A stretch of DNA of 32,000 nt from Candidatus Saganbacteria bacterium (GTDB taxonomy: Bacteria; Margulisbacteria; WOR-1; JAKLHX01). A program made the translations under genes and the position numbers. Of the stretch, positions 316 through 25,428 are shown in pieces. Each line of letters starts with the position of its first letter. Positions within the stretch are counted from its first letter, which is position 1. The notes beneath the pieces were generated by a model, which was not told where the DNA came from, searched no databases, and worked only from the letters and a program-made list of their open reading frames with translations. The stretch lies in contig JAPLKZ010000007.1 of assembly GCA_026387835.1 (NCBI GenBank), forward strand, positions 65,284 through 97,283. Direction: 5' to 3'.

Positions 316-2263
316 GAATATTAGCAACAAAAAACTGATCGTTCTTGGCAGAACTGCAAGCGAAGGCGACTGCAGGCGTATAGTTGCCGGTTGCGATGAT
401 GCGCTTATTTGCGACTTTTCGGAATATTATCAGATAAACCGTGACGAACTTTTAAAGCGCGCCAAAGAGGGCCTGCATATCGAACTTTCGGCAATATTTC
501 ACAAAGTGCAGGAGGATATGAGAGATAAATATCTTGACTTTATTGCTGATTGGCCCAATAAAGTATTATGGCGCGGGAAGGATTTTAAAGAGCTTTTTGC
601 CTGGAAGGGAATAAGCCTTTGGTGGTTCAGCGAGCCGGCGAGGAAGGTTATCGGGGAATACGGAGAATATTCAAAGATCTGCGAGATATTCACAATAAGA
701 GATATTATTAGTTCGTGCGGTATTGATAGCGTTCAATTAATTTCGTGCCCAAAAGCCTTTCGCCCCACGCTAAAGAAGATCTTTCCGAAAATAAGGATCT
801 CACATATTGGTCCCGCTAAGGAATGCGGACTATTAAAACATCTGCTCAGAAGAATAATAGTAATGTTTAATGCAATCCTCATAAAGTTCATTTTTAATGA
901 CAAAAGCAATAGATACGGAAAAGATAGGATCGGTATTATCTCATTCAATCTTTATAATTGGATAGAGAGCAATAAGGTGCCGGTAGACCGCCTGTACCAG
1001 GGACTTGTTGAAGACAAAAGCCTCGGGAATGTGTTTGACTGGATATTTGTCACATCCGCTAATATGGTCGATCTGATCCGCAAAAAAAAACTGAAGGATA
1101 CTTTGGGGCTTTTCAGAAGGATCAGGGACCATTATGGAAGATCATCATTAACATTCGTGGAAAACAAGATCGGTTTCAGCCAAATTGTATTACGGTTTGT
1201 CGATTGTTCCGCAATAATCAGATATTTGTTGCTGGCAAGAAAGAAAGAGTTTAGGGACAGCCTGACAATCGAAGGGGTCAACATATTTGATATTTTTCAT
1301 AATGCCTTTGTCAAATCATTTGTTGTGAATACATTTGAGTCCCAGATGTTGTCGGAATGTTTTTATCGCCTGAATAGGGACGTAAAACACGAGACATATG
1401 TAACTTATGCGGAATTCTTCCCGACCGGCAGGGCGGTGATACACGGGGTAAAGAGGGCTGATACAAAATCCAGGATAGTCTGGCATCAGCATTCTATGCA
1501 AACCAAAGGAAAGACAATGTTTATCAACAGGATCGGTGAAACAAATAAGTCCGGAAGTAAAAATTATGTGCAGTCTTTTCCGATAGCGGATAAATATCTG
1601 ATGTGGGGAAAGCAGGCAAGGTCGGTAGTCGCTCCGGGTTTTCCGGAGAGCAGGATAAAACTTATAGGGTCCTATAAGTATGTTGATAATTTCTATGCAA
1701 TTGCAAGCCATAAGGAGGAATCAAAAGGCGGTAAAAAAAAGATATTGATAGTGCCCTCAAATTACCGCAGGGACTGGCTTTTCCTGTTTAATATCATTTT
1801 TAACGCATTAAAAGATGCGGGAAATCAATATGATGTGAAGGTGACAAAACATCCGGCTGTCCAAAAAGAGATGTTCATTAACGATCTTAAGAGATTTAAA
1901 GGCGGGGTGGATGTTGTCTACAGGGACAGCACGTCAGATGCTCTTACAGAAGCGGATATAGTGATAGGAGGGGTCACTACGGTCATTCTCGACGCAATAC
2001 TGGCCGGGAAATTTGCTATTATATGTAAGAGTCCTAATGATATATACTATGGTATAGACAAGGATGATTTTCCGGAGAATTCGCAGGAGGTGGGAATAGC
2101 TTTTGTCTGCAATCATCAGGAACTGCGAAAAAGCCTGCAGGATTTTAGCAGCAGCGGAGTTGATGAGCTTATTAATAAAAGAAGAAAACTTGTTGACGAT
2201 ATTCTTGAATATCGCGGTCCGTTGGTGAAAGAAAAGTTTTGGGAAGAGGTAAGACAATACTAA
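305..2263 (+). CDS. Large uncharacterised protein with a C-terminal GT-B-like, cytidine-nucleotide-type (TagF / sialyl- / beta-Kdo-transferase-like) domain
   Basis: The track ORF is 260-2263 (667 aa). I prefer ATG 305, which has AAGGTGGA 9 nt upstream and gives the N-terminus MSNKNISNKKLIVLG; ATG 260 remains possible. Three collinear C-terminal motifs match the TagF-like gene at 14966: KILIVPSNYRRD (cf IYYIPTFRSRKE), VKVTKHP (cf LIRFHP), EADIVIGGVTTVILDAILAGK (cf KADILITDYSSICFDYLLMDK). I recognise no family for the N-terminal ~450 aa. Confidence 0.7.
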   Translation: MSNKNISNKKLIVLGRTASEGDCRRIVAGCDDALICDFSEYYQINRDELLKRAKEGLHIELSAIFHKVQEDMRDKYLDFIADWPNKVLWRGKDFKELFAWKGISLWWFSEPARKVIGEYGEYSKICEIFTIRDIISSCGIDSVQLISCPKAFRPTLKKIFPKIRISHIGPAKECGLLKHLLRRIIVMFNAILIKFIFNDKSNRYGKDRIGIISFNLYNWIESNKVPVDRLYQGLVEDKSLGNVFDWIFVTSANMVDLIRKKKLKDTLGLFRRIRDHYGRSSLTFVENKIGFSQIVLRFVDCSAIIRYLLLARKKEFRDSLTIEGVNIFDIFHNAFVKSFVVNTFESQMLSECFYRLNRDVKHETYVTYAEFFPTGRAVIHGVKRADTKSRIVWHQHSMQTKGKTMFINRIGETNKSGSKNYVQSFPIADKYLMWGKQARSVVAPGFPESRIKLIGSYKYVDNFYAIASHKEESKGGKKKILIVPSNYRRDWLFLFNIIFNALKDAGNQYDVKVTKHPAVQKEMFINDLKRFKGGVDVVYRDSTSDALTEADIVIGGVTTVILDAILAGKFAIICKSPNDIYYGIDKDDFPENSQEVGIAFVCNHQELRKSLQDFSSSGVDELINKRRKLVDDILEYRGPLVKEKFWEEVRQY

Positions 2264-2272
2264 TATATTAAC

Positions 2273-2818
2273 ATGCAACAAGAAAAAATAAGACTAAATA
2301 TAGGTTGCGGCAATGATATCAGGCCAGGTTATATCAATTGCGACAAAGTAGCAATAGAAGGGGTGGATAAAGCAGTTGATCTTGATGCTAGGCTGCCCTT
2401 TGAGGATAATAGTGTTAATGAAATAGTCCTCATCGATGTGCTTGAGCATGTTCAGGATTTTATAGGATCTATGGAAGAGCTTTGCAGGATCTTGGAAAAA
2501 AATGGGCGGCTTATTATACAGGTACCTTATTGGAATAGCTGGTGCGCCGTGGCCGATCCGACGCACAGGCGTGGTTTTCATGAAAAAGTATTCAATTTTT
2601 TTGATCCGGACAGGGAAGAATGCAGGGAAAGGCACTATTACACAAAAGCCAGGTTCAGGATTATTTCTTTAAATCCGGTTTTGTACCCGTTTTCACCATC
2701 CTTCAGATCCAAAAAAAGAGAAATAAAGAATAAATTATTGAAAAAGGCGGTGTTTTTTCTGGGCAACTATTTGAATAATATCATCATAGATCTGTCTGTG
2801 ATACTTGAAAAAGCATAA
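2273..2818 (+). CDS. Small class I SAM-dependent methyltransferase (Methyltransf_11-like)
   Basis: It has the glycine-rich motif I (IRLNIGCGND) and an acidic loop (LPFEDNSVNEIVLIDVLEHV), followed by LEKNGRLIIQVPY. The protein is 181 aa. Confidence 0.85.
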   Translation: MQQEKIRLNIGCGNDIRPGYINCDKVAIEGVDKAVDLDARLPFEDNSVNEIVLIDVLEHVQDFIGSMEELCRILEKNGRLIIQVPYWNSWCAVADPTHRRGFHEKVFNFFDPDREECRERHYYTKARFRIISLNPVLYPFSPSFRSKKREIKNKLLKKAVFFLGNYLNNIIIDLSVILEKA

Positions 2819-2828
2819 GGAGAAGAAC

Positions 2829-3590
2829 ATGGAAAATCTGAAGAAGAGGCTTGGCGAAAAAAAACTGACGGTTGGAAGCTGGATCCAAATCCCGGATACA
2901 TTTACCGCGGAAATAATGGCAAAGTCAGGATTTGATTGGCTGGCGATCGACATGGAACATGGCTTGATAGATATGAAGGACGTTTTCAGGCTGATACAGG
3001 TGATTGATCTTGCAGGGTCGGTTCCCCTTGTGCGGCTCAATGTAAATGATGCCAGCACCATTAGGCGTGTGATGGACGCGGGAGCGGCCGGAGTGATCGT
3101 TCCTATGGTCAACTCTGCTGATGATGCCCAAAAAGCGGTTGAGGCCGTAAAATATCCCCCCCAAGGCAAGAGGAGCTTCGGTTTGGGCAGGGCGCATGGT
3201 TATGGCAGGAAATTTAAGGAATATATCTCGGCGTCAAACTCACGTAGCATTCTAGTGGTCCAGATAGAGCATATAGATGCAGTAAGGAATCTGGATGAAA
3301 TTTTAGAAATAAAGGGGATTGATGCGGTGATAATCGGTCCGTATGATCTTTCCGGCTCCATGGGTATCCCGGGGAAATTTAATGACACAAAGTTTATAAA
3401 AGTAATCGGAGAGATCAGCAAAAAGGTAAAGAGCAAAAAGATCGCGCTGGGATTCCATCTTGTTCAACCAGGCGCAGGAGAGCTCAATAAAAAGATAAAA
3501 GAGGGCTTCACTTTTATCGCTTATGGAATGGATACTATATATCTGTCAAACGCCCTGTCAAACGCGGTTAATGATATAAGAAAAGGATAA
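2829..3590 (+). CDS. HpcH/HpaI-family class II (metal-dependent) pyruvate aldolase
   Basis: The sequence LTVGSWIQIPDTFTAEIMAKSGFDWLAIDMEHG...VPLVRLNVNDASTIRRVMDAGAAGVIVPMVNSADDAQKAVEAVKYPPQGKRSFG matches the 2,4-dihydroxyhept-2-enedioate / 2-keto-3-deoxy-sugar-acid aldolase family. ATG 2829 has AAGGAG 6 nt upstream. The TTG 2805 start in the track is unlikely. Confidence 0.9.
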   Translation: MENLKKRLGEKKLTVGSWIQIPDTFTAEIMAKSGFDWLAIDMEHGLIDMKDVFRLIQVIDLAGSVPLVRLNVNDASTIRRVMDAGAAGVIVPMVNSADDAQKAVEAVKYPPQGKRSFGLGRAHGYGRKFKEYISASNSRSILVVQIEHIDAVRNLDEILEIKGIDAVIIGPYDLSGSMGIPGKFNDTKFIKVIGEISKKVKSKKIALGFHLVQPGAGELNKKIKEGFTFIAYGMDTIYLSNALSNAVNDIRKG

Positions 3591-3594
3591 TAGC

Positions 3595-4581
3595 GTGAAG
3601 GAATTTGATCTGATGCGGCCGAAGGGCGCCTACGAGGAGGTGCTTCTCCAAAGAGAGAAAGACGGCTTTGCTTTTTTCTCAAAGTATAAAGACAGTTTTA
3701 TCGATATAGATTGCCCTGCCTGCGGTGAAAGGGGTGAAAAAGCTTTTGAGAAATACGGTTTTACACATAAGATCTGCGATAAATGCAAGACCCTGTTCTG
3801 TTCTCCGAGGCCGAATGACGAGCTGTTAGGTGTTTATTATAATGAATATGAAGCGCCTAAAATGTGGACCAAACTGCTTGTAAAAGCGGATGCAAGCAGA
3901 AAGGCTCTCCAGTATGCTCCGCGCGCGGAAAAAATTGTTGATCTTATGAAAAAGCGCGGAAAAAACGGCGGCCTCGCTGTTGACATAGGTGCCGGATCGG
4001 GAGCCTTTTCTATAGCACTCAAAAATACCGGTTTCTTTTCAGATGTGATAACGCTTGATTTCTCAAAGGACTGTGTGGCTGAATGCAAAAGATCAGGGTT
4101 GAATGCACGCCTTGGCACAGTAACCGATCTTTCTGATTCATCTGCCAACCTCATCTGTATGAACGATCTTTTGGAACATCTGTTTGATCCGCTCACTTTT
4201 CTGAAAAAATGCGCGAATGCGCTTCGCCCGAAGGGTGTTGTCTCGATCGCCACGCCCAACGGGCAGGGTTTTGATTTTCAGATACTTAAGGAAAAGACCG
4301 GGAATATTACACCGCCGGAACACCTCAATTATTTCAATCCGGCCTCGCTGTCTATGCTGCTTAACAGGGCCGGGTTTGAAACGATATCTGCCGAAACGCC
4401 GGGGATACTTGATGTGGACATTATTTTGAACGGAAAAAAGGTCGGCTTTCCCCTCAAGCAAAAAAATGAATATCTTGACAGCCTTATGGTACAGGACGAG
4501 AGTATACGAAAAAAATTCCAGAAGTTTTTATCGGAGAACGGCTTGTCCAGCCATATGCTGGTAATGGCAAAGAAAAAATGA
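3595..4581 (+). CDS. SAM-dependent methyltransferase with an N-terminal CxxC...CxxC zinc ribbon (paralogue 1)
   Basis: It carries the zinc ribbon CPACG...CDKCKTLFCSPRP, motif I (VDIGAGSGAF), NDLLEHLFDP and PPEHLNYFNP. It is 328 aa with a GTG start and is collinear with the ORF at 5368-6354. Confidence 0.8.
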   Translation: MKEFDLMRPKGAYEEVLLQREKDGFAFFSKYKDSFIDIDCPACGERGEKAFEKYGFTHKICDKCKTLFCSPRPNDELLGVYYNEYEAPKMWTKLLVKADASRKALQYAPRAEKIVDLMKKRGKNGGLAVDIGAGSGAFSIALKNTGFFSDVITLDFSKDCVAECKRSGLNARLGTVTDLSDSSANLICMNDLLEHLFDPLTFLKKCANALRPKGVVSIATPNGQGFDFQILKEKTGNITPPEHLNYFNPASLSMLLNRAGFETISAETPGILDVDIILNGKKVGFPLKQKNEYLDSLMVQDESIRKKFQKFLSENGLSSHMLVMAKKK

Positions 4582-4594
4582 AACTGAGATGTAA

Positions 4595-5371
4595 ATGAAT
4601 ATTATAGGAATAATTCCCGCGCGCATGGCGTCCAGCAGATTTCCCGGGAAACCACTGGCAAAGATACTTGGCATCCCGATGATCGGGCACGTGTACTTCA
4701 GGAGCAGGATGTGTAAGACGCTCAATGAAGTGTATGTGGCGACGTGCGATAAGGAAGTGTTTGAATATTGCAATTCCATTGGTGCAAAGGCTGTGATGAC
4801 CAAAGATACGCATGAGAGAGCCTCTGACCGCGCGGCCGAGGCGATGCTGAAGATAGAAAAGGAAACAGGGGAGAAGATCGATATCGTGGTGATGATACAG
4901 GGCGACGAGCCGATGCTGTATCCTGACATGATCGACGATGCTGTGAAGCCGCTCATAGACGACAAGAATATCTTTGTCTCCAACCTCATGGCGCCAATGA
5001 CAAAAGAAGAGCAGGAAGATCCCAATGAGGTCAAGGTGGTATGCGATAACGATAATTTTGCACTATATTTTTCGAGGGAGCCGATCCCTTCCTGGAAAAA
5101 AGGGGCAAAAGAAGTTCCGATGTTCAAACAGGTCTGCATAATCCCTTTCAGGAGGGATTTTCTTCTGAAATTCAACGAGCTTGTGCCAACTCCTCTTGAG
5201 ATAGTGGAATCGGTGGATATGCTTAGGGTGCTGGAGCATGGTTATAAGGTAAAAATGATCAGGAATGACAGGCAGACATACAGCGTTGACACGCAACAGG
5301 ACTTAAAAGATGTCGAGGAAGCGATGCGCCCTGACAGCCTGATAAAAAAATACAAAGGGCAGGGCAAATGA
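4595..5371 (+). CDS. kdsB: KdsB-family cytidylyltransferase (CMP-3-deoxy-ulosonate synthetase-like, CTP_transf_3)
   Basis: It aligns along its whole length with E. coli KdsB as I recall that sequence: IIPARMASSRFPGKPL..ILGIPMIGHV, QGDEPML, VKVVCDNDNFALYFSREPIP, PTPLEIVESVDMLRVLEHGYKV, VDTQQDLKDVE. The substrate may not be Kdo itself. Confidence 0.88.
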   Translation: MNIIGIIPARMASSRFPGKPLAKILGIPMIGHVYFRSRMCKTLNEVYVATCDKEVFEYCNSIGAKAVMTKDTHERASDRAAEAMLKIEKETGEKIDIVVMIQGDEPMLYPDMIDDAVKPLIDDKNIFVSNLMAPMTKEEQEDPNEVKVVCDNDNFALYFSREPIPSWKKGAKEVPMFKQVCIIPFRRDFLLKFNELVPTPLEIVESVDMLRVLEHGYKVKMIRNDRQTYSVDTQQDLKDVEEAMRPDSLIKKYKGQGK

Positions 5372-6354
5372 AAGAAGAAGAGATCAGAAAGCGCGACGTA
5401 TTTAACAAGTATCTTGAGCTGGTAAAGGAAGATATCGATACGATCTTCAAAGACAAGGGCGCGTTCATAGACGCGGCTTGTCCGGCCTGCGGCTCGGACG
5501 AGAACACCTTTCAATTTGAAAAATCCGGGTTTAAATACGTGCTTTGCAATAAATGCGGCACTTTGTTCGCCAACCCGAGGCCTACGCTGAAGGCGCTCAC
5601 GGATTTCTACTCGTCTTCAAAGTCCGGGGATTTCTGGGTAAAAGAGTTCTTTCTTCCAGTGGCGGAAGTGCGCAGGGAAAAATTATTCAAACCCAGGGCA
5701 GAACTTGTCAGCGGCAGGTTACAAGAGCCGGAAGGTTTTGTCGGGGATGTCGGGGCGGGTTTCGGTATCTTTCTTGAGGAACTTGGCAAGGTCTGGAAGA
5801 AAGCAAAAATGGCGGCTATCGAGCCTTCTATAGAAATGTCGGACATATGCACTAAAAAAGGCTTTACCGTGATACGCAATGCGGTAGAGGATGTCACGGG
5901 ATGGGACGGCAAATTCTCGGTCTTAACTGCATTTGAGCTGTTTGAGCACCTGCAGGACCCGGGTTCTTTTCTTGAAAAGATACACTCTCTTCTGTCCAAA
6001 GGCGGGCACCTGCTTCTTTCGACGCTGAATGGGGAGGGTTTTGACATTCAGATACTGTGGGAGCGCTCAAAGAGCGTCTCTCCCCCGCACCATCTCAACT
6101 TTTTCAACCCCGATTCAATGCGAATATTACTTGAAAAAAAAGGGTTTGCCGTTGAATCTATAACCACTCCAGGAAAACTGGACTGGGATATTGTTGAGGG
6201 AGCTTACCGGAAAGAAGGGCAGGATCCCGGAAGATTGTGGAAGCTTTTATCTCAAAAAGGCAATGAGCAGGCAAAAGAAAAACTCCAGGAATGGATAACA
6301 AAAAATAATTTTAGCTCCCACATGATGGCGATCGCTCGCAAAGGAAATCAATGA
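5368..6354 (+). CDS. SAM-dependent methyltransferase with an N-terminal zinc ribbon (paralogue 2)
   Basis: It carries CPACG...[34 protein letters not shown] and [10 protein letters not shown], with the C-terminal tail [10 protein letters not shown] (cf SSHMLVMAKK in paralogue 1). It is 328 aa and overlaps the upstream gene by ATGA. Confidence 0.8.
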
Positions 6355-6938
6355 AGATTATTTTTCAAATGTTTATTGAAGAGATCCTTGATGTTGTGCG
6401 TTTGTTGCTGCGCAATTATCCCGGCAGGATCGGGTATAAGTTAAGGCGGGAATACTGGAAAAGAGCCTTTCTGCATTGCGGATCAAAATTCAATATTGAT
6501 ATTGAAGGCATTATTTCCGGATCAAAAAATATTATTTTGAAGGATCACGTGACATTTAGCACAAGAGTCACTATAGATGCAAATCAAGCGAAACTAACAA
6601 TCGGAAACAGATTTAGTTGCAGCAATAATGTGTTTATGGGTGCTACTGGAGGAGAGATGATCATAGGAAATGATGTAATGATCGGCCCAAATGTGGTTCT
6701 GCGGGCATCAAATCATGTTTTTAACAGGACAGATATTCCCATGAGAGATCAGGGGCATTCGTTCGGCAAAATAATTATCGAGGACGATGTTTGGATAGGA
6801 GCCAACGCGGTCATTTTGCCGAATGTGACGATTGGTAAAGGTGCTATCATCGCGGCCGGCGCCGTAGTGACGAAGGATGTACCCCCGTATAGTATCGTTG
6901 CAGGTGTGCCGGCAAAAACGATAAAGAGCAGAAAATGA
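6351..6938 (+). CDS. Hexapeptide-repeat (left-handed beta-helix) sugar O-acetyltransferase, WcaF/LacA/NodL-like
   Basis: The sequence [20 protein letters not shown]...[49 protein letters not shown] shows the hexapeptide repeats. It overlaps the upstream gene by ATGA. Confidence 0.9.
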
Positions 6939-7864
6939 AAGTATTTATATCAACAACAACTTTCGCGGAGTATGAAGATCAGCCGCTTAAAATGTTAAAG
7001 GACCACGGTATGGAATTCCAGGTGAATCCGCTGCGCAAGAAGCTCTCTGGTGAAGAGCTGATATCTCTTGCTAAGGACGCGCAGGGTCTTATAGCGGGTA
7101 CTGAAGTCCTGACAGCGGAAGTGCTGAAGGAATTAAAAAGCTTAAAAGTGATCTCCCGCTGCGGTGCGGGACTTGATAATGTGGATCTAAAAGCCGCCAA
7201 AGGCCTCAATATCATGGTCTTTAATACGCCTGACGCGCCGACAGATGCAGTTGCTGAATTGACGCTGGGTCTCATGCTCGATTGCCTGCGCAAGATATCA
7301 GGAGCTGACAGGCAGATCAGGCATGGCAAATGGAATAAACCGATGGGAAATCTTTTAAAAGGCAAAAATGTCGGGATCATCGGATATGGAAGGATAGGAA
7401 AAGCGGTTGGACGCCTGGCAGAGGCCTTTGGCGCGAATGTTTCGGCATATGATGTTGCAAAAGATCCTGACGGCAAAAAATATCTTTCTTTTGATCAGTT
7501 GATCGCCGGTTCAGACATTATAAGTCTGCATGTCCCCGGCAGTAAAACAGGCCATTTGATACATGCAAAAGCTGTTTCAAATATGAAAAACGGCGCGTTT
7601 TTGATCAATGCTTCAAGGGGCGGTCTTGTGGACGAGGAGGCTCTTTATGAGGCTTTAAAGTCGGGAAAACTGGCGGGAGCAGGCATAGACACTTTTGAAA
7701 AGGAACCGTATCAAGGAAAACTCATTGAATTGGATAATGCGGTATTGACTTCTCACATAGGATCTTACGCGAAGGAGTCCAGGATAAATATGGAACAACA
7801 AGCGGTCGAAAATCTTATTCGTGGACTTGAGGAAGCTACTGCTAACGGGAGGAGCAATAAATGA
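6935..7864 (+). CDS. D-isomer-specific 2-hydroxyacid dehydrogenase (phosphoglycerate/glycerate dehydrogenase-like, no ACT domain)
   Basis: It has the NAD motif [17 protein letters not shown] and the catalytic triad context [12 protein letters not shown]...[11 protein letters not shown]...LTSHIG. Confidence 0.9.
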
Positions 7865-8853
7865 TGACTGAAAAAGAATGTTATCAATTGTTCAAGAAAT
7901 ATGCAGAAAATTATAAGCCTTTTCAGTTTGATACTGCTAGAAATGATTTTCGTGCTGAATACAAAGGTAAAAATAATCTAATCATTTCGTTCTATAGATA
8001 TTTCAAAGTATTTTATGAGGTCTCTAAAATATGGGGGAAAAACAAATCAAAAGTCGTTGATTTTGGGGTTTTCCCCGGAGTTGTTCCGAAAATATTCCGA
8101 GATCTCTTTTTGAATGATAATTTTGACTATATCGGAGTTGGATTGGGTTTTACCGATGATTTTATTAAGGAGATGGAGAAATTAAAAATAAAGTTACATG
8201 AAACTGAGTTGGACCCATCTTATTTTATGCCTAAAAAAGTCAATCAACTGGATTGTTCTGACGCAGATATAGTTCTTTTTTTGGATGTTATAGAACATCT
8301 GGCTAATCCCACCAATGCGCTTGACGTTGCCAATCACTCCCTAAAAAAAGGCGGATGGCTTATTCTGACGACTGACAATATAACTAATGCGAATAATGCG
8401 ATCCTAATGTTGCTCGGGAAAACGCCATTGCCGCATCCGTTGTTAACAAACATGTATTTCATCGGAGATTGGCGCCCCCATTTCAGAGAATATTCTAAAG
8501 AAGATTTGATGTGGCTGTTACGGAACAGCGGTTTTGAAATTGAAAAACACGAGTATTTTGACAGAAAACAAGGCGAATATTATTTAAACAATGGAAGGAT
8601 AGAAAGACAACGCCAATCTGTTGATAACAGCAAAATAGACAGAAGGCTAAAAATTAAAATCATAAGGAACATTAAAAAAGCAGTAATGGCTTTGTTGAAA
8701 ATTGCATTTTCTTTCTCCCCTCATTTCCGCTCTCATCAAATTATTGTGGCCAGAAAGGTATTTGAAACAGGGGAAATGAAAAAGAAAAGGCCGGAAATGC
8801 AAACTTCGACCGAGGGATGGAATGCTGTCAGGCAAAAATATTTGGGTTATTAA
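7861..8853 (+). CDS. Probable class I methyltransferase with a degenerate motif I
   Basis: It has VVDFGVFPG in the motif I position, then DADIVLFLDVIEHLANP, LKKGGWLILTTDN and REYSKEDLMWLLRNSGFEI. The gene is markedly AT-rich relative to its neighbours. Confidence 0.65.
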   Translation: MMTEKECYQLFKKYAENYKPFQFDTARNDFRAEYKGKNNLIISFYRYFKVFYEVSKIWGKNKSKVVDFGVFPGVVPKIFRDLFLNDNFDYIGVGLGFTDDFIKEMEKLKIKLHETELDPSYFMPKKVNQLDCSDADIVLFLDVIEHLANPTNALDVANHSLKKGGWLILTTDNITNANNAILMLLGKTPLPHPLLTNMYFIGDWRPHFREYSKEDLMWLLRNSGFEIEKHEYFDRKQGEYYLNNGRIERQRQSVDNSKIDRRLKIKIIRNIKKAVMALLKIAFSFSPHFRSHQIIVARKVFETGEMKKKRPEMQTSTEGWNAVRQKYLGY

Positions 8854-8886
8854 CCAAGAAAATTATATAGAACTGGAGGAAATAAT

Positions 8887-9753
8887 ATGAAAATCATAGT
8901 ATTCGGGGGCGCGGGTTTTTTGGGCAGCCACGTGGCGGACGCGCTGACAGAAAAAGGGCACAAAGTCACGGTATTTGACCTGATAAAGTCGCCTTATCTA
9001 AAAGAAGGCCAAAACAGCATCATAGGTGATGTCACTGATCCTGAATGCGTCAGCAAGGCGGTGGCGGGACAGGAGATCGTATATAACTTCGCGGGAATAG
9101 CGGACATGGACGCGGCAAAAATAAAACCGCTTGAAACAGTAAAGAATAACATATACGGAAACACCGTGCTTCTCGAGGCCTGCAGGAAATCAAAGGTCAA
9201 GAGGTTTGTCTTTGCCAGTACTCTTTATGTTTACAGCAAGGCGGGTTCTTTTTACAGGAGCAGCAAGCAGGCGAACGAGCTTTTGATAGAGAACTACCAC
9301 GATATCTATGGCCTCGATTTTACGATACTGAGATACGGATCGCTATACGGGCCAAGAGCGGATGAAAACAACTGGATACACAGGGTGGTAAATCAGGCGC
9401 TGAAAGAAAATAAGATCACCAGGCACGGCGACGGTGAGGAACTGCGCGAGTACATCCACGTGCTGGATGCTGCCAGGCTGAGCGCGGACATACTGTCAGA
9501 TGATTACAATAACCAGTACGTGATAATAGCCGGCCACCAGCAGATGAAGATAAAAGACCTTATGGTGATGATAAGGGAAATACTGAATAACAAGATAAAG
9601 CTCGAATACCTACCCGTCGATTCAACCGAGCACTACGAAATCACTCCGTATGTCTTCAGCCCGAAGATAGCAAAACGTATACAGAGCAATAATTATATTG
9701 ATCTGGGTCAGGGGATACTTGATCTCATCACAAGGATATATGCCGCAAAATGA
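8887..9753 (+). CDS. NAD-dependent epimerase/dehydratase-family SDR (nucleotide-sugar epimerase or ketoreductase)
   Basis: It has MKIIVFGGAGFLGSHVADAL (GxxGxxG) and the YxxxK motif in YRSSKQANE. A GGAGG RBS lies 7 nt upstream. Confidence 0.85.
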   Translation: MKIIVFGGAGFLGSHVADALTEKGHKVTVFDLIKSPYLKEGQNSIIGDVTDPECVSKAVAGQEIVYNFAGIADMDAAKIKPLETVKNNIYGNTVLLEACRKSKVKRFVFASTLYVYSKAGSFYRSSKQANELLIENYHDIYGLDFTILRYGSLYGPRADENNWIHRVVNQALKENKITRHGDGEELREYIHVLDAARLSADILSDDYNNQYVIIAGHQQMKIKDLMVMIREILNNKIKLEYLPVDSTEHYEITPYVFSPKIAKRIQSNNYIDLGQGILDLITRIYAAK

Positions 9754-10397
9754 CAAGAACCAAGGCCATAATATTTGATTTTGACGGGGTGATCGTTGAA
9801 TCAATGGATATAAAAGCCGATGGATTCGCTTTTCTATTTAAGGATTATCCTGATAAGACAGATAAGATCGTTAGATTTCACCTTGACCATGGGGGGATGG
9901 GGAGGATGGAAAAGTTCGAACGGATATATAGAGATTTCCTGGGTCAAAATATTACAGAAACAGAAAAGGTGATCTTAAGCAAAAAACTCACAGAATTCGC
10001 ATATGAAAAAGTCGTGAAATGTCCGTTTGTCGCAGGGGCGAAGGAATTTCTTGAAAAACACAAAGATGACTTTCTCATGTTTGTCGTGTCCGGAACACCC
10101 GATAGTGAGATTAAGAAAATTGCAGGAAAAAGGAAACTTTCCGGATATTTCAAGGAAGTGCTGGGATCACCCAAGAAAAAGACCGAGCTTAACGGGTATA
10201 TTCTTAAAAAATATGATCTAAAGCCTGAGGAAACTGTTTTTATCGGGGATTCGATCGACGATTATATCGGGGTAAAAGACCTGGGGATAAGGTTTATAGG
10301 TAGGATCGACAAAGAAGATCCGTTCAAGGGTCTTGAGATCGAAAGCAGGATAAAAGATCTTTCTGAACTTGAAAGCATGGTGGGTAAAAATGTATAG
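9750..10397 (+). CDS. HAD-superfamily phosphatase (subfamily IA, phosphoglycolate-phosphatase/beta-PGM-like)
   Basis: It has motif I (IIFDFDGVIVES), motif II (VVSGTP) and motif IV (FIGDSIDD). It overlaps the upstream gene by ATGA. Confidence 0.85.
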   Translation: MTRTKAIIFDFDGVIVESMDIKADGFAFLFKDYPDKTDKIVRFHLDHGGMGRMEKFERIYRDFLGQNITETEKVILSKKLTEFAYEKVVKCPFVAGAKEFLEKHKDDFLMFVVSGTPDSEIKKIAGKRKLSGYFKEVLGSPKKKTELNGYILKKYDLKPEETVFIGDSIDDYIGVKDLGIRFIGRIDKEDPFKGLEIESRIKDLSELESMVGKNV

Positions 10398-11131: not shown

Positions 11132-12262
11132 ATGAACAAACCTTACGGAGGAAAACTGATCGACAGATACGACCTCCCGGTGAAAACCCCGGCATATGAT
11201 CATGAGGTCACTGTGTCTGATGTTGTGGTGTCTGACCTGTATAATATCGCGGACGGTGTTTTCAGCCCGCTTGAAGGGTTTATGACGGCTAAAGAATTTA
11301 ACAGTGTAGTAATGAAGGGTGTTTTTCGCGATCTTCCATGGACGATACCAATACTTATTGATGTTGACAAGGCGGAAGCCATTGCGGCAGGAAGATCAAA
11401 ACTGGTAGGAATTCGAAATAAAGAAGGCAAACTATTTGCGTCAGTTGAGGTCGAGGATGTCTATGCGCACAATAAAGAACTTCATGCAGAAAAAGTCTTC
11501 GGAACAAATGACAAAAAACACCCCGGGGTAAACTTTGTCCATAACATGAAAGAGTACCTGATCGGCGGAAAGATACTTGTCCACAAGAGGGCCCGACATT
11601 TTGGCAGTTATATGTCTCCGAGACAGACGAGAACGATGTTCGAAAAACTCGATCTTAAAACCATTGCGGGTTTTCAGACAAGAAATGTACTTCACAGAGC
11701 CCACGAATATCTCCAGAGATGCGCTCTGGAGCTGGTGGACGGCCTTTTTCTTCAGCCGATAGTAGGGTGGAAAAAACCGGGCGATTTTACCGCGGAAGCC
11801 GTAATAAAAGCCTACAGAGAATTCATAAAAGATTATTATCCGAGAAAGCGCATCGTTCTTGGCACTTTAAAGACAGCAATGCGCTATGCCGGACCTAAAG
11901 AAGCTGTGTTTCACGCGATCATAAGAAAAAACTTCGGCTGTACCCATTTTATCGTCGGCCGGGATCACGCGGGTGTTGGAGGGTACTACGGCAAATACGA
12001 GGCGCACGATATATTCGACAGGATAAGGGATCTTGGGATCACAATCTTGAGGTTCAAAGAGCCTCTTTACTGCAGTAAATGTGACCTTATAGTCACAGAA
12101 AAGACCTGCGGCCATAATAAAAAATATCACCAGGAAATAAGCGGGACTCTCGTAAGAAGCATCATCAAGAAGGGGGATCAGCCGAAGCACAAGATCTTCA
12201 GGCCTGAGGTTTACGACGTCCTGGTAAGAGAATTTAAGGCGCATCACCTTTTTTATGAATAG
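11132..12262 (+). CDS. sat: Sulfate adenylyltransferase (ATP sulfurylase, homo-oligomeric Sat type)
   Basis: It has GFQTRNVLHRAHEYLQ and HFIVGRDHAGVGGYYGKYEAHDIF, plus a PUA-like N-terminal domain. It is 376 aa. Confidence 0.92.
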   Translation: MNKPYGGKLIDRYDLPVKTPAYDHEVTVSDVVVSDLYNIADGVFSPLEGFMTAKEFNSVVMKGVFRDLPWTIPILIDVDKAEAIAAGRSKLVGIRNKEGKLFASVEVEDVYAHNKELHAEKVFGTNDKKHPGVNFVHNMKEYLIGGKILVHKRARHFGSYMSPRQTRTMFEKLDLKTIAGFQTRNVLHRAHEYLQRCALELVDGLFLQPIVGWKKPGDFTAEAVIKAYREFIKDYYPRKRIVLGTLKTAMRYAGPKEAVFHAIIRKNFGCTHFIVGRDHAGVGGYYGKYEAHDIFDRIRDLGITILRFKEPLYCSKCDLIVTEKTCGHNKKYHQEISGTLVRSIIKKGDQPKHKIFRPEVYDVLVREFKAHHLFYE

Positions 12263-12271
12263 GAGCAAATA

Positions 12272-13696
12272 ATGGATAAGACAAAGATAGTCTGCACTAT
12301 TGGCCCGGCTTCGTGTGACAGGAAAACACTGGAAAAACTTGCGAAAGCCGGGATGAATGTTGCCAGACTGAACGGCTCTCATAACACTCTTGATTGGCAT
12401 GAAAAATCAATTAAACTTATAAGATCGGTCGACAAGAACATCCCGATCCTTCTGGATTTGCCGGGAAGAAAAATCAGGACTGCTAAATTTAAGCATACCT
12501 ACAAGCTTAAAAATGGAAAGACAATAATATTTACTTCGGTAAAAGGGTATAAAAGTTCCGATAAAGTGGCTGTAAATTACAGCGGTCTGCACAGGGACCT
12601 TAAGAGAGGGAATATTATCCTAGCCGATGACGGGACGTTGAAATTCAGGGTTGTCGAGGTAAAAGGCACGAACGTGTTCTGCAGGATACTCACCGACGGG
12701 GAACTCAAAGGCGGCAAGGGGTTGAATGTCCCGTACGTCAAGGTCAATACGCCTCTTATAACTGAAGATGATAAAAGACTCATTAAGTTCGCGATAAAGA
12801 ACAAAGTTGATTGGGTGGGGCTGTCGTTTGTCGAAAACGGCGAACATGTAAGAAAAGTGAAAAAACTTCTGGGAAACAGCGGAATAGGGGTGATAGCAAA
12901 GACAGAGAACAAGTTCGGCATAGACAATATAGAAAGTATCCTGAAAGAATCGGACGGGATCCTAATAGACCGAGGAGACCTGGGTGCCGAGACTTCTATT
13001 GCCAATATAGGGGTGATCCAGAAGAAAGCGATCATAGCGGCGAACAGCAGCGGCAGGCCGGTCATAGTAGCGACGGAGATGCTCCATTCCATGATAGAAA
13101 AACGACAGCCCACAAAAGCAGAGGTTACGGACATAACGAATTCTATAATGGACGGCGCCTCGGCAATAATGTTGTCCGGGGAGACAGCCGTGGGGATAGA
13201 CCCGGTCAATACGGTAAAGGTCATGCGCTCCGTGGCGGACGAAGCAGAAAAATACTTTTCAAGATCCGCAGTCATAGATTCATCGATGACCCAAAAGACA
13301 ATACCCAGCGCAATAGGTAAAAGTATATATGAGATATCAAAAGAGATGCCGATAGACAAGGTTGTCTGTATAACCTTGTCGGGTTATGCCGCAAGGATGA
13401 TAAGCAGGTACAAGCTTGACCAGATGATACTGGCGGTAACGGACAAGATCGAAAAGGCAAGAAAATTCAATCTTTTGTGGGGAGTAACGGGCATTTGCCT
13501 CGGCATTAATTTTGTCAGCAAGGATTATTCGCATATCATCGAGAGCGCAAAACAGCTTTGGAAAGAGGGTTTCCTGAAAAAAGATGACCTGGTAGTGTTT
13601 ACCGCGGTCATACTACCTTATAGGAATGCAAAGATGAACTATCTCCAGATACATAAGATGAGCGATCTGATCGCGCTGTTCAAGTGGGGCAATTGA
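12272..13696 (+). CDS. pyk: Pyruvate kinase (probably the K+-independent subtype)
   Basis: It has KTKIVCTIGPAS, GMNVARLNGSHN, AKTEN, IDRGDLGAE, VATEMLHSM...PTKAEVTDITNSIMDGASAIMLSGETAVG. DLPGRKIR replaces the canonical DTKGPEIR. That puts Lys at the position of rabbit-muscle Glu117, the change reported to remove K+ dependence. This alignment is from memory. Confidence 0.88.
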   Translation: MDKTKIVCTIGPASCDRKTLEKLAKAGMNVARLNGSHNTLDWHEKSIKLIRSVDKNIPILLDLPGRKIRTAKFKHTYKLKNGKTIIFTSVKGYKSSDKVAVNYSGLHRDLKRGNIILADDGTLKFRVVEVKGTNVFCRILTDGELKGGKGLNVPYVKVNTPLITEDDKRLIKFAIKNKVDWVGLSFVENGEHVRKVKKLLGNSGIGVIAKTENKFGIDNIESILKESDGILIDRGDLGAETSIANIGVIQKKAIIAANSSGRPVIVATEMLHSMIEKRQPTKAEVTDITNSIMDGASAIMLSGETAVGIDPVNTVKVMRSVADEAEKYFSRSAVIDSSMTQKTIPSAIGKSIYEISKEMPIDKVVCITLSGYAARMISRYKLDQMILAVTDKIEKARKFNLLWGVTGICLGINFVSKDYSHIIESAKQLWKEGFLKKDDLVVFTAVILPYRNAKMNYLQIHKMSDLIALFKWGN

Positions 13697-13700
13697 TCTC

Positions 13701-14969
13701 ATGCCTATTCCAGTAATATCAACGCTTACAAACCATGAGCTGACGAGGTTCTTTTTCGCCATCGTGCTTTTGTTGAGCTTCGCAAATATTTTCGGTTATA
13801 TTTTCCATAAGTTCAAAATGCCCAGGGTGATCGGTGAAATCTTCGGGGGAATAGTCCTCGGACCGTCTATTATGGGTGCTGTTTTTCCGGGTTTCTTTAC
13901 AGTAATATTTGATGCTTTTCCTTCGGAAGGGAAGCTTCTATCGGTCATGTACTGGTTCGGTCTTGTGCTGTTGATGTTCGTCTCCGGTTATGAGATACCC
14001 AGGGTATTTGAGAAAAAGGACAGGAACCTGATATCCGCCATACTTATCGGTTCCACTGTCATCCCGTTCACCGCAGGGTGGCTGTTCACATATGCTGCTG
14101 ATATGCCATCACTCATGGGTTACGCTCAGAACGCTTTGGCTTTCAGGATAGTGATGGGGATAGCGGTAGCCGTGACGTCCATCCCGGTCATATCGAAGAT
14201 CTTTCTGGACCTTGACATAATAAAGACCGGATTTGCAAAGATAGTGCTGACCGCTTCTACCGCGCATGATCTGATATTGTGGATAGCCCTTGCCGTGGCA
14301 ACCGGACTTGTGAGTTCAAAAGATCTATCGGTATCAGGAATAGCCATGACAGTAGCCGTTACGCTGGTGTTCTTTGTCCTCGGAGCCGCCTTTGTCCCGA
14401 GGATCGTAGCCGCGGGCAACAAGATGAGGGCTAACCTGCTGATAAAATCATCGGTGTTCGGTTATACGCTGTTCATCTGCTTCCTTTTTTCAGCGATAGC
14501 AAGCCTTCTCAACGTCAATATAGTCTTTGGTGCGTTCCTGGCAGGCATCATAATTGGGACAGTTCCGGGAGACGAGTTTGAAAATGCGAGGAAAAGCATA
14601 AAGGAGAACGCTCTTTCGTTCTTTGTGCCCGTGTATTTTGCCATAGTCGGCATCAGGCTTAATTTCATCAGCCAGTTCGATCCCAAGTTCTTTATCTTGT
14701 TCATGCTGGTGGCGCTGGCAGCGCAGGCAGTCGGTACCTTGCTGGCTACGGCAGTGATGAGAAAAGATATCTTCACGGGATTCAATTATGCTGTTGCGAT
14801 GAACACCAGGGGAGGTCCCGGGATAGTCCTGGCTTCCGTCGCGTATGAACTGGGCATCATAAACGGTTCCTTCTTCACTTCGATAGTGACGCTTTCCGTT
14901 TTGACCGCGCTGCTTGCAGGAGTATGGTTCAAGTATGTTCTTTCAAAAGGATGGGAGCTTGCTTCATGA
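13701..14969 (+). CDS. Cation:proton antiporter, CPA2 / Na_H_Exchanger family, membrane domain only (no KTN/RCK domain)
   Basis: It is a polytopic hydrophobic protein of 422 aa. The N-terminal signature FKMPRVIGEIFGGIVLGPSIMG is typical of KefB/NapA-type exchangers. It starts 4 nt after the pyk stop. Confidence 0.82.
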   Translation: MPIPVISTLTNHELTRFFFAIVLLLSFANIFGYIFHKFKMPRVIGEIFGGIVLGPSIMGAVFPGFFTVIFDAFPSEGKLLSVMYWFGLVLLMFVSGYEIPRVFEKKDRNLISAILIGSTVIPFTAGWLFTYAADMPSLMGYAQNALAFRIVMGIAVAVTSIPVISKIFLDLDIIKTGFAKIVLTASTAHDLILWIALAVATGLVSSKDLSVSGIAMTVAVTLVFFVLGAAFVPRIVAAGNKMRANLLIKSSVFGYTLFICFLFSAIASLLNVNIVFGAFLAGIIIGTVPGDEFENARKSIKENALSFFVPVYFAIVGIRLNFISQFDPKFFILFMLVALAAQAVGTLLATAVMRKDIFTGFNYAVAMNTRGGPGIVLASVAYELGIINGSFFTSIVTLSVLTALLAGVWFKYVLSKGWELAS

Positions 14970-16177
14970 GCAAAATAAAAACAATATTAAGTCTCATTTT
15001 TTATACCATGGTCTGCATGGTCATGTTTTTAGCCTATTTTCTGTTAGGATTGGTCCCACGCAGAAAAGATATAGTGGTGTTCGGGAGCTGGGAAGGCAAA
15101 AAGTTTTGTGACAACGCGAAATATCTTTTCTTATACATAGCAAAGAACTGTAAGGAATATAGACCTGTATGGATTAGCCGCAATAATAAGATCATCTCAG
15201 ACCTGAGGGCGCAGGGTTTTGAGGCGTTCCATGCAAGAAGCCTGAAAGGATCCTGGTTCTGCTGGCGTGCGAAGTTCATATTTATTACACACAGCCTGAC
15301 GTATGATGTAAATCCTGTGGTGACACGGGGAGCTGTGATATTAGACCTTTTTCATGCTACATTGCCCATTAAAAAAATGGGCTACGATGTGACACAGGAA
15401 TGTCCCCTGTTAAAAAGAGCAATTAATTTCTTGTCAACGCCTTTTGAATATATAAAAGCCGATTACGCATTCAGCCCGTCTAAGAACATATCTCCAATCC
15501 TGAGCACCGCATTGCGGGTGAAAACGGCTAATATCAAAGTAACGGGATTGCCGAGAAGCGATTATATGCTGCAAGTCAATGATCAGGAATCAAATAAAGA
15601 CTATTACAAAATATTTAAAGGCAGAAAGTTTAAGAATATGATCTATTACATTCCGACTTTTAGGAGCCGAAAGGAGTTCGATTTATTTCATTACGGCTTT
15701 AGTGAGGCCCAAATAAATGATCTTCTGGAAAAAACAGACAGCGTTCTTCTGATACGTTTCCATCCTTTTGATTCTGACAAGTACAAGGATATAGCGCAAA
15801 ATAAAGAAAGAATATTCTTTGATAATACCGATGACCTGTATCCCCTTCTCAAAAAAGCGGATATACTGATCACAGACTATTCCAGCATTTGCTTTGATTA
15901 CCTGCTTATGGATAAACCCATAGTCTTTGCAAATTTCGATTATGCCGATTATCTAAAAGAGCGGCCGTTATATTGCGACTATGCGAAAATCACACCCGGA
16001 GTAAAAGCAGAAAATTGGCCGGATTTAGTTAAAAGCCTGGAATTAATTTTGATTTCCGGCCAAGATCAATTTATTAAGGAGCGTGAAATAATGAAACAAT
16101 ATGTGTATGACTATCTTGATCAAAATGCATGCGCCAGGATCGCACGATTTTTTAGAAGCTTACAAGGGGAACAATAA
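14966..16177 (+). CDS. CDP-glycerol glycerophosphotransferase-family (TagB/TagF-like) teichoic-acid-type phosphotransferase
   Basis: It has IYYIPTFRS, LLIRFHPFD and ADILITDYSSICFDYLLMDKPIVFANFDYADY (Glyphos_transf motifs), plus an N-terminal hydrophobic helix. I chose ATG 14966, which overlaps the antiporter stop by ATGA. The track start of 14924 is unlikely. Confidence 0.85.
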   Translation: MSKIKTILSLIFYTMVCMVMFLAYFLLGLVPRRKDIVVFGSWEGKKFCDNAKYLFLYIAKNCKEYRPVWISRNNKIISDLRAQGFEAFHARSLKGSWFCWRAKFIFITHSLTYDVNPVVTRGAVILDLFHATLPIKKMGYDVTQECPLLKRAINFLSTPFEYIKADYAFSPSKNISPILSTALRVKTANIKVTGLPRSDYMLQVNDQESNKDYYKIFKGRKFKNMIYYIPTFRSRKEFDLFHYGFSEAQINDLLEKTDSVLLIRFHPFDSDKYKDIAQNKERIFFDNTDDLYPLLKKADILITDYSSICFDYLLMDKPIVFANFDYADYLKERPLYCDYAKITPGVKAENWPDLVKSLELILISGQDQFIKEREIMKQYVYDYLDQNACARIARFFRSLQGEQ

Positions 16178-16989
16178 TGATCACATCCTTATATTCAGAT
16201 GCACATCTCAAGGAGGCAAAGGAGCTGTTCCCTGATAAGGTCGGTGATCCCAACTGGCTTAATTCGCAGTGGACGACAGAGGAAATAAATATGTGCAAAG
16301 AACTCTCCTTGCACAAAACTATTTATGCAATGAATATGAATGAATATGAACAGTATATGGGGATAGATCCTCCATCCATGCGACAACAAGCCATAGCCGA
16401 AATCATTACCAAAAACTTTCCAAATAAAAACATAAAAGTACTGTCTATCGGATGCGGTTATGGTGATAAAGAGCTGTATCTGGCAAGGAAGGGCTATGCA
16501 GTTACTGCCTTCGACGTTTCGCCGGTCATGGACTTTTTGCGTGAAAGATATTCCGGTGAGGTGGATTTTACCACTTCTCTTGATGCCAGAAACATGCCAT
16601 TTGTCCCGGAGAGCTTTGATCTGGTCTTAGTGCTGAATATGATTTATGCCATCCCAAATGAGGATTTGCCCGGATTATTTTCTAATATTAATATGATCAT
16701 AAAGAAAGGCGGGGGGTTTATTCTTAGCTCGTCAGCAACAATTGGATTTAGAGAAAAGATAAAAATATTGGCGAAAAAACTATTCGGGAAAAAAGCTTCT
16801 TCTCGAAAACCCGACGGGTGGAAACAGACCGGTTGGAAGAGGGATCGCCGGGAAATGGAACGATATTTGCCTTTCAATGATTTCAAACAAATCCGATATG
16901 ACGGCTCTGTCTGTCGCGATCTGAGTGCTAAGAGAGTGTTCTCAAAAGACCCATATTATGACTTTTGGGTAGCGAAAGGGAAGAAGTAG
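16177..16989 (+). CDS. Class I SAM-dependent methyltransferase
   Basis: It has VLSIGCGYGDKELYLARKGYAVTAFDVSPVM and FDLVLVLNMIYAIP...IKKGGGFILS. TAATG forms a 1-nt overlap with the upstream gene. Confidence 0.8.
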   Translation: MITSLYSDAHLKEAKELFPDKVGDPNWLNSQWTTEEINMCKELSLHKTIYAMNMNEYEQYMGIDPPSMRQQAIAEIITKNFPNKNIKVLSIGCGYGDKELYLARKGYAVTAFDVSPVMDFLRERYSGEVDFTTSLDARNMPFVPESFDLVLVLNMIYAIPNEDLPGLFSNINMIIKKGGGFILSSSATIGFREKIKILAKKLFGKKASSRKPDGWKQTGWKRDRREMERYLPFNDFKQIRYDGSVCRDLSAKRVFSKDPYYDFWVAKGKK

Positions 16990-25270: not shown

Positions 25271-25424
25271 AGAAATGCCCGTTAAAAATTATAAAAAACG
25301 AAAACACGTTATATTTGCATATCTTCTTTTTGCTCCGACATTATTAAACATAAATATTGCAAGGTTCGTCATTGAAAGTGAAAATAATATTAGTAATCTT
25401 GTAAATAAAATCATTGAGGTGTAA
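25260..25424 (+). CDS. Unlisted 54-aa small ORF (MKNKEMPVKNYKKRKHVIFAYLLFAPTLLNINIARFVIESENNISNLVNKIIEV), hypothetical
   Basis: It is below the 60-aa track cutoff; I translated it by hand. AAGGAG lies at 25247-25252, 7 nt before ATG 25260. Its TAA stop ends 4 nt before the radical SAM start. It has a basic N-terminus followed by a hydrophobic stretch. Coding status is unproven. Confidence 0.3.
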   Translation: MKNKEMPVKNYKKRKHVIFAYLLFAPTLLNINIARFVIESENNISNLVNKIIEV

Positions 25425-25428
25425 GCAA

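Follow-up and report, generated by a model that had tools for sequence, protein, structure and literature searches.

Why should genes for sulfate activation and for a pyruvate kinase (PK) lie side by side in an operon for a surface glycan? The question is raised by a 32,000-nucleotide (nt) stretch of Candidatus Saganbacteria DNA (hereafter the window; positions 65,284 to 97,283 of contig JAPLKZ010000007.1, from an assembly of 1.5 Mb and 13 contigs that is 95% complete). The plus strand, which carries all 31 large open reading frames (ORFs) of the window, encodes in succession Sat (11132..12262), a homo-oligomeric-type ATP sulfurylase of 376 amino acids (aa) with PUA_2 and ATP-sulfurylase domains; a Sat-linked PK paralogue (12272..13696) of 474 aa with barrel, B, and C domains and the signature IDRGDL, ATEMLH, and PTKAE; a CPA-superfamily membrane transporter (13701..14969) of 422 aa with ∼12 hydrophobic segments and a Na_H_Exchanger match; and a TagF-like phosphotransferase-fold enzyme (14966..16177) of 403 aa with a Glyphos_transf domain. 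By domain searches, the remainder of the window is a glycan locus. An earlier note, made from the letters of this DNA alone, had given the ORF coordinates, the gaps of 9 nt between sat and pyk and of 4 nt between pyk and the exchanger gene, and the overlap of the exchanger gene with its neighbor, and all of these proved exact: the exchanger TGA (14967-14969) overlaps the ATG at 14966 as ATGA, so that the TagF-like gene is translationally coupled. The 14966 start is backed by homologue alignments and by a database protein of 403 aa (P0121). The 88 nt upstream of sat form the sole real gap nearby; promoter-like and terminator-like sites between 8500 and 18500 did not exceed shuffled expectation, and an Rfam scan of the window gave no match.

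The answer starts from the PK, which is not the glycolytic enzyme of the cell but a member of a separate, widespread paralogue clade inherited with Sat. For the four genes together (11132-16177), we favor, with a confidence somewhat better than even, the reading that they form a dedicated sulfate-activation-and-use unit in the surface-glycan operon, with PK feeding in ATP from phosphoenolpyruvate (PEP).

A pyruvate kinase paralogue that travels with ATP sulfurylase

Judged from its sequence, Sat is an ordinary ATP sulfurylase, expected to make adenosine 5′-phosphosulfate (APS) from ATP and sulfate. Its domains score 126 bits (PF14306, PUA_2) and 287.5 bits (PF01747, ATP-sulfurylase), and the protein lies above the curated cut-offs of both NF003166 (443.3 versus 387) and TIGR00339 (329.3 versus 322.95). 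None of the active-site motifs QTRN, HRAH, and GRDHAG is disrupted, with FQTRNVLHRAHEYL and IVGRDHAGVG aligning to 8a8d and 1v47, and the best PDB match is 8a8d, a Methanothermococcus ATP sulfurylase (2.5e-97). Recruitment of Sat to another anion was rejected because these motifs are canonical. The gene is single-copy in the genome (profile search) and sporadic in the phylum, with 5 of 146 genomes encoding it and not one of the 7 from the same family. The earlier note had proposed a genome search for cysH; no PAPS_reduct/CysH match was found in the 95%-complete genome, so Sat would have no assimilatory role.

The window PK has PK and PK_C domains and scores 451 against a TIGR01064 cut-off of 306. 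A second PK is encoded 118 kb away, with a higher Pfam score (364 bits versus 310 for the window copy) and 35% identity to it, and the window gene is therefore not the housekeeping copy; the idea that it might be the only pyk in the genome, which the earlier note had asked to be checked, thus fell away. Its IDRGD, ATEMLH, and PTKAE motifs are unlike those of all eight housekeeping PKs compared, contrary to what would be expected of a main glycolytic PK. Nevertheless, the enzyme looks catalytically intact, as had been judged before. None of the catalytic residues (Arg, Asn, Lys, Glu, Asp, and Thr) has been lost, nor has the Lys of the B domain; the motifs ARLNGSH, AKTEN, DRGDLG, ATEML, and LSGETA are present, and the catalytic residues are likewise kept across all Sat-linked PK forms, fusions included. 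The Lys at the Glu117 position, to which the earlier note had drawn attention, is real (DLPGRKIR), but K or R occupies this position in housekeeping PKs too, both in this genome and in others, and we rejected it as a special signature of the window enzyme.

What does set the Sat-linked PKs apart is a group of altered motifs. In place of the ARGD(L/M)G seen in 8 of 8 housekeeping PKs, every form has (I/V)DRGDL, the fusions and a mini-PK included, and the full-length forms have ATEMLH for ATQML(D/E) and PTKAE for PTRAE. The extra Asp in the ARGD motif was found in 120/120 top homologues and, among the matches listed, in 77/79 metagenome loci. In human PKM2, according to a docking paper (PMC11207066), Ala293 and Gln329 help to line the PEP site, so the Sat-linked enzymes would have two extra acidic side chains in the PEP-site cavity. 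The phylogenetic placement that the earlier note had called for was equally clear: in a tree, a single group of 86 rows (SH-aLRT 99) took in the full-length Sat-linked PKs and left the 8 housekeeping PKs outside, and the window PK fell within an 8-row subclade (support 100). Its closest homologues, at 57-66% identity, come from Planctomycetota and Omnitrophota metagenome-assembled genomes (MAGs) and other contigs.

Genome loci of the clade were retrieved by scanning one genome per species with the conserved peptides ATEMLH and PTKAE, which gave 80 loci; metagenome loci were the matches listed, all of them 42-48% relatives and none from the window's 57-66% subclade. The loci carry more than 10 phylum labels, and among the labels of the 80 genome loci are Alphaproteobacteria, Gallionella, Binatia, Deltaproteobacteria, Acidobacteriota, Verrucomicrobiota, Bacteroidota, Actinomycetota, Elusimicrobiota, Chloroflexota, Omnitrophota, and Planctomycetota. 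The gene immediately 5′ of the clade PK is sat in 65 of the 75 genome loci that could be assessed and, among the metagenome matches listed, in 50 of 58; the same holds for every examined context of the nearest (57-66%) homologues. The co-occurrence analysis suggested earlier for sat, pyk, and the CPA2-type gene thus places Sat upstream in 115 of 133 assessable loci, and it finds CPA-like homologues (33-47% identity) in 25 of the 164 loci holding a clade PK. An APS kinase (CysC) is encoded within 5 kb in 55 of 70 genome loci and, among the matches listed, in 40 of 53 metagenome loci. Elsewhere the genes usually run CysC-Sat-PK; a CPA-like or TauE transporter often accompanies them, as does, in some loci, a sulfotransferase of the type that uses 3′-phosphoadenosine 5′-phosphosulfate (PAPS). 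Since CysC co-occurs with the clade PK in most loci, we rejected PK as a replacement for CysC. All five other genomes checked hold both a Sat-linked PK and a higher-scoring housekeeping PK. A scan of PKs in 401 sampled Omnitrophota genomes found a Sat-linked PK in one alone (G150).

The two proteins also vary together. Pairwise distances among the PKs correlate with those among the Sats (r = 0.83, Mantel p ≤ 0.001, n = 128), and the seven loci with the Sats nearest to that of the window are also the seven with the nearest PKs. In two genomes of the same class, a PK barrel is fused to Sat in proteins of 729 and 734 aa that lack the PK C-domain, with CysC following (L098, 8367-12769, in G102; L099, 8391-11161, in G142), and a third genome of the window's phylum encodes CysC, Sat, and then a 320-aa mini-PK. 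The fusion gene of G102 is followed by a gene for a 738-aa APS-kinase fusion, which in its C-terminal half matches an unknown protein of 669 aa from another contig, L198, where CysC, a TagF-like gene, and a Sulfotransfer_3-like gene lie nearby. In five further loci (L052, L085, L086, L087, and L088) a clade PK has no Sat within 10 kb yet adjoins a TauE or CPA-like carrier, the order in L052 being TauE, PK, sulfotransferase; the link between PK and transporter may hold without Sat in these loci.

Missing PAPS enzymes and the partners of the Sat-PK pair

On the accepted view, a bacterium that sulfates its surface glycans requires Sat (or CysDN), CysC, and a PAPS sulfotransferase. Within the window, none of the ORFs has a Walker A motif or matches the APS_kinase or sulfotransferase families in domain searches, which bears out the earlier observation that no CysC-type P-loop or sulfotransferase is encoded there. 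Nor does the 95%-complete genome supply the two enzymes by which PAPS-dependent sulfation is recognized, an APS kinase and a PAPS-binding sulfotransferase. APS_kinase (PF01583) gave no Pfam match in it, and a hidden Markov model (HMM) built from 61 module-linked CysCs reached at best 21.8 bits in this genome versus 170 bits in a control. Profile searches of the genome found no Sulfotransfer_1 or Sulfotransfer_3, and no Sulfotransfer_2 or Stf0 was found either, both searches having been run without a positive control. The genome likewise encodes no sulfatase-fold protein. From its gene content, the organism appears unable to reduce sulfate and seems unable to make PAPS. The possibility, raised in the earlier note, that cysC and a sulfotransferase lie immediately outside the window and make this an ordinary sulfation module did not hold.

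The window's closest relatives are similar in this respect. Within its PK subclade, CysC is found in L089 only, and this locus also has Sulfotransfer_3. The Sat-PK pair is instead accompanied by a TagF-like enzyme in the window, L090, L091, L008, and L092, and by a sulfatase-fold protein encoded directly 3′ of it in L009 (11445-12641) and L010 (11413-12582). The latter proteins carry PSTG in place of the C/SxPxR formylglycine motif. They also match a nucleotide pyrophosphatase family weakly, and in L009 a radical S-adenosylmethionine (SAM)/SPASM gene comes after the sulfatase-fold gene. Neither APS kinase nor Sulfotransfer_3 was found in the genomes of L009, L010, and L083 (G150, G151, and G155; Omnitrophota and Planctomycetota MAGs), whereas the CysC-positive Stappia genome (G146) has Sulfotransfer_3 matches. 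A Flavobacteriaceae MAG (G153) was considered as a further CysC-less case and rejected; it has nine Sulfotransfer_3 matches, and its CysC is therefore probably just unassembled. Sulfotransfer_3 genes adjoin PK in L089 and L052 and, by BLAST, in several further loci.

The transporter scores 133 bits with Na_H_Exchanger (PF00999) and 108.6 with TIGR00932, below the cut-off of 238.3. It resembles the NapA/Kef-type CPA2 proteins (4bwz) in fold and length, in its 12 hydrophobic segments, and in its TSIP and NTRGGPG blocks, and its family shares an invariant NTRGGPGIVL block. It differs from them at the ion-binding site as aligned to NapA, in that a His replaces the leading Asp of the DD motif, which thus reads HD (QD, KD, ED, or LD in module homologues), and a Gln aligns at Lys305. 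Score, DD motif, and Lys partner thus all speak against a CPA2 antiporter, and the assignment extends to the superfamily fold PF00999 only. The CPA-like gene lies either just after PK (the window, L053, and L160) or before CysC (L015, L020, L027, and others). A TauE-family anion carrier holds the slot next to PK in another 13 loci, and in L089 such a carrier lies between Sat and PK. The presence of Sulfotransfer_3 and of TauE or CPA-like carriers around the module places the clade PK firmly in sulfation biology, and a sulfate-supply role for the CPA-like transporter is plausible.

The TagF-like protein scores 214 bits with Glyphos_transf (PF04464). Like TagF, TarL, and Cps3D (3l7i, 8va1, and 8qoy), it has a GT-B-type Glyphos_transf domain with all of the family motifs, H-x-T-x-P-x-K, PRxD, PTFR, HP, and DYSS being kept in comparison with TarL (8va1) and Cps3D (8qoy). 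It lies far below the cut-offs of the TarF, TarL, and TarB equivalogs, however (93 versus 550, 84 versus 1000, and 47.5 versus 500, respectively), and its homologues form a distinct set at 34-55% identity. A search confined to the window found no TagD- or TarI-type gene for a CDP-alditol synthase, the KdsB-like CTP_transf_3 gene being the only one of this kind, and the window's clade also departs from the known enzymes in being tied to Sat-PK or CysC. By BLAST alignments, orthologues (42-57% identity) lie directly 3′ of a Sat-linked PK in L090, L196, L197, and L118, and another lies in L198 between a weak Sulfotransfer_3 match and CysC. These four contigs, together with the proximity to CysC in L198, tie the TagF-like clade to sulfate-activation genes, and the link exceeds what the ATGA coupling alone would show.

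Proposed role and competing explanations

In the reading that we favor, PK beside Sat would turn PEP and ADP into ATP, so that PEP would pay for the unfavorable activation of sulfate while ADP would be kept low. The CPA-like membrane protein, in the slot held elsewhere by TauE-type carriers, may supply the sulfate. With neither APS kinase nor PAPS-type sulfotransferases in the genome, activated sulfate would most likely exit as APS. Its most likely user would be the ATGA-coupled TagF-like enzyme, whose orthologues follow the Sat-linked PK elsewhere, and the product would be a charged decoration on the glycan made by the surrounding genes. The earlier note had proposed, as one of its options, a sulfate-activation module in which PK regenerates ATP and whose kinase and transferase lie outside the window. 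This is the best-supported direction, since Sat-PK is a conserved unit, mostly with CysC, but the kinase and transferase were found nowhere in the 95%-complete assembly. For the CysC-less Sat-PK genomes, this one and the three MAGs, we entertain as a minority view that APS is passed directly to a phosphotransferase-fold, PAPS-independent glycan sulfotransferase, or that a novel sulfate-containing group is attached, with the altered PK forming part of a new chemistry. The candidates for direct use of APS would be the TagF-like protein here and the sulfatase-fold protein without CxPxR elsewhere.

Parts of this scheme have precedents. In B. subtilis, sat and cysC reportedly lie with the sulfate permease gene cysP. 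The window unit is like such Sat-CysC operons and fusions in bundling a transporter with activation, and its Sat is of the same homo-oligomeric type as the bifunctional Sat/APS kinase of Aquifex aeolicus (2gks, match 5.9e-61); most relatives of the module also have CysC directly 5′ of Sat. Unlike them, it has a dedicated PK paralogue, sits in a glycan operon with no sulfate-reduction genes, and comes from a genome in which CysC is missing. In CysDN, a GTPase-coupled ATP sulfurylase, GTP hydrolysis by CysN pulls APS formation, and PK with PEP is the standard laboratory means of regenerating ATP in test-tube PAPS synthesis. What both share with the proposed unit is that the APS step is pulled at the cost of a second high-energy compound; unlike in CysDN, the coupling would run via the ATP/ADP pool or a Sat-PK complex and not via a GTPase subunit.

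Several points weigh against the scheme. The ATP-regenerating role of PK is read solely from gene linkage and retained catalytic residues, and the adjacency rates describe this PK clade rather than PKs or Sats generally, because the loci were retrieved by clade-defining peptides. The enzyme absences are not absolute in a genome that is 95% complete. Without CysC the pathway makes no ADP, yet PK is intact in this genome and in G150, G151, and G155, which weakens the argument from ADP removal. A plain ATP regenerator also leaves the Ala-to-Asp and Gln-to-Glu changes unexplained. The TagF-like enzyme may use a CDP-linked donor and not APS, since all of the CDP-alditol phosphotransferase motifs are kept, and the (Q/H)D site of the transporter recalls Kef-type K+/H+ exchangers more than it does anion carriers.

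Some of these points would be met if the PK paralogue had acquired a new chemistry, which we regard as unlikely. Rather than simply forming ATP, it would then act on a sulfur nucleotide or another substrate, and Sat and PK together would make a donor besides APS and PAPS, for example by sulfuryl or phosphoryl transfer with APS or an enolpyruvate derivative, the transfer to the glycan being left to the TagF-like or sulfatase-fold enzymes. The (I/V)DRGDL motif of every Sat-linked form and the ATEMLH and PTKAE motifs of the full-length forms would fit this, the changed positions lining the PEP-site cavity of PKM2 (PMC11207066). So would the retention of PK in genomes without CysC and the phosphotransferase folds of the partners found there, whether TagF-like or of the PSTG sulfatase type. 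On the other hand, the canonical catalytic and ADP-site residues are all kept, and because the L089 PK (64% identity) adjoins an ordinary CysC and Sulfotransfer_3, the role of the clade PK must fit the standard PAPS route. Peliska and O'Leary reportedly found in 1989 that muscle PK can move a sulfuryl group from sulfoenolpyruvate to ADP, which would favor such a chemistry; we know of no natural candidate reaction, which counts against it.

The earlier note had raised a related option, that Sat-, PK-, or CPA2-family proteins were recruited to a different anion or substrate. It fails for Sat, which is canonical, and retains some force for PK, with its extra Asp (and an extra Glu in the full-length forms), and for the CPA protein, which lacks the DD/K site. 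The parallel invoked was the Campylobacter O-methyl phosphoramidate (MeOPN) pathway, in which the CysC homologue Cj1415 is said to act on CDP-amidate. That pathway is similar in placing enzymes of the sulfate-pathway type, with methyltransferases, in a glycan locus for a small charged decoration. It differs in that the recruited enzyme there is a CysC homologue, whereas in the present unit it is the PK that is unusual, next to a canonical Sat and in the absence of CysC.

It is rather improbable, in our judgment, that an ordinary PAPS pathway has simply escaped notice, with cysC and a sulfotransferase in the unassembled 5% of the genome or too divergent to be recognized, and with TagF unrelated to sulfate. 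An assembly in 13 contigs at 95% completeness leaves room for this, CysC is next to Sat in most relatives, the TagF motifs are canonical, and the TagF orthologue of L198 sits between a weak Sulfotransfer_3 match and CysC. However, the CysC of relatives is almost always adjacent to Sat, and the fully sequenced flanks here hold none; G150, G151, and G155 likewise lack both CysC and Sulfotransfer_3, whereas the CysC-positive G146 has Sulfotransfer_3; and two independent CysC searches were negative, one of them with a positive control.

We give very little credence to a PK that supplies pyruvate to the HpcH aldolase, another option of the earlier note, or that regenerates CTP for CMP- or CDP-dependent steps. 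PKs accept other nucleoside diphosphates, the operon does hold an HpcH aldolase and a KdsB-like cytidylyltransferase, and HpcH, KdsB-like, and methyltransferase genes recur beside CysC-Sat-PK in L015 (Gallionella) and L041 (Acidobacteria). Yet near the clade PK, HpcH homologues occur in 2 of 164 loci and KdsB-like genes in 4 of 164, compared with a Sat directly upstream in 115 of 133 assessable loci (the metagenome part among the matches listed), and in the genomes examined the fusions join PK to Sat, not to an aldolase or a cytidylyltransferase. That ordinary sat, pyk, and antiporter genes landed in the glycan operon by chance can be set aside as extremely unlikely: all three belong to common housekeeping families, but the second PK, the lack of a sulfate assimilation route, the sporadic Sat (5/146 genomes of the phylum and 0/7 of the family), the conserved adjacency, the distance co-variation, and the fusions already refute it.

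In the literature searched, we found no natural Sat-PK module, APS-dependent glycan sulfotransferase, or "pyruvate kinase-like" sulfation enzyme. A 2024 review lists no PAPS-independent kind besides aryl sulfotransferases, and it has APS solely as an engineered donor (PMC11625862). Sat-CysC, CysDN, and the laboratory use of PK with PEP are thus known; what appears to be new, judging by the literature searched, is a module that includes a PK of its own, seen here as a rare version that lacks CysC and is coupled to TagF. A PK that travels, co-evolves, and sometimes fuses with Sat under more than 10 phylum labels is likely an overlooked component of sulfate activation, which would be driven by PEP or be something stranger. 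The CysC-less versions offer a natural experiment on how the module functions in cells unable to form PAPS, and direct use of APS, if true, would mean a new class of sulfotransferase and a simpler enzymatic route to sugar sulfation. The Sat-linked PKs are currently annotated as glycolytic pyruvate kinase, and they could mark sulfated glycans in uncultured bacteria.

The surrounding glycan locus and related cassettes

Directly 3′ of the TagF-like gene, the plus strand encodes a SAM methyltransferase (16177..16989; Methyltransf_25/11/23 matches). A methyltransferase, in some cases of a different type, is also encoded after or near the TagF-like gene in L090, L196, L008, and L092. The genes of the glycan locus include those for five methyltransferases, the HpcH aldolase, the KdsB-like cytidylyltransferase, a 2-hydroxyacid dehydrogenase, a HAD phosphatase, DegT aminotransferases, GT2 and GT4 glycosyltransferases, a B12-radical SAM enzyme, and a PMT_2 protein.

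A 667-aa protein encoded at 260-2263 (+) has no Pfam match. It is 20% identical over 590 aa to proteins of 673 and 677 aa in L008 and L092, which are encoded there between the KdsB-like and TagF-like genes. In L090, a fragment resembling it lies just 5′ of Sat and scores 25.5 bits with Capsule_synth (KpsC/KpsS family). The 667-aa protein may be the keto-acid-sugar transferase of the locus. Seven gene types are common to the window (2805-10397) and to the compact cassettes of L008 (3366-11440) and L092 (1241-9338), namely those for the HAD phosphatase, the KdsB-like cytidylyltransferase, the unknown protein of ∼670 aa, the TagF-like enzyme, a methyltransferase, Sat, and PK. Finally, the B12-binding radical SAM enzyme of the window, at 25414-26883 (+), is 54% identical to one encoded at the start of L008, and relatives at 21-27% identity are found in L010 and L072.

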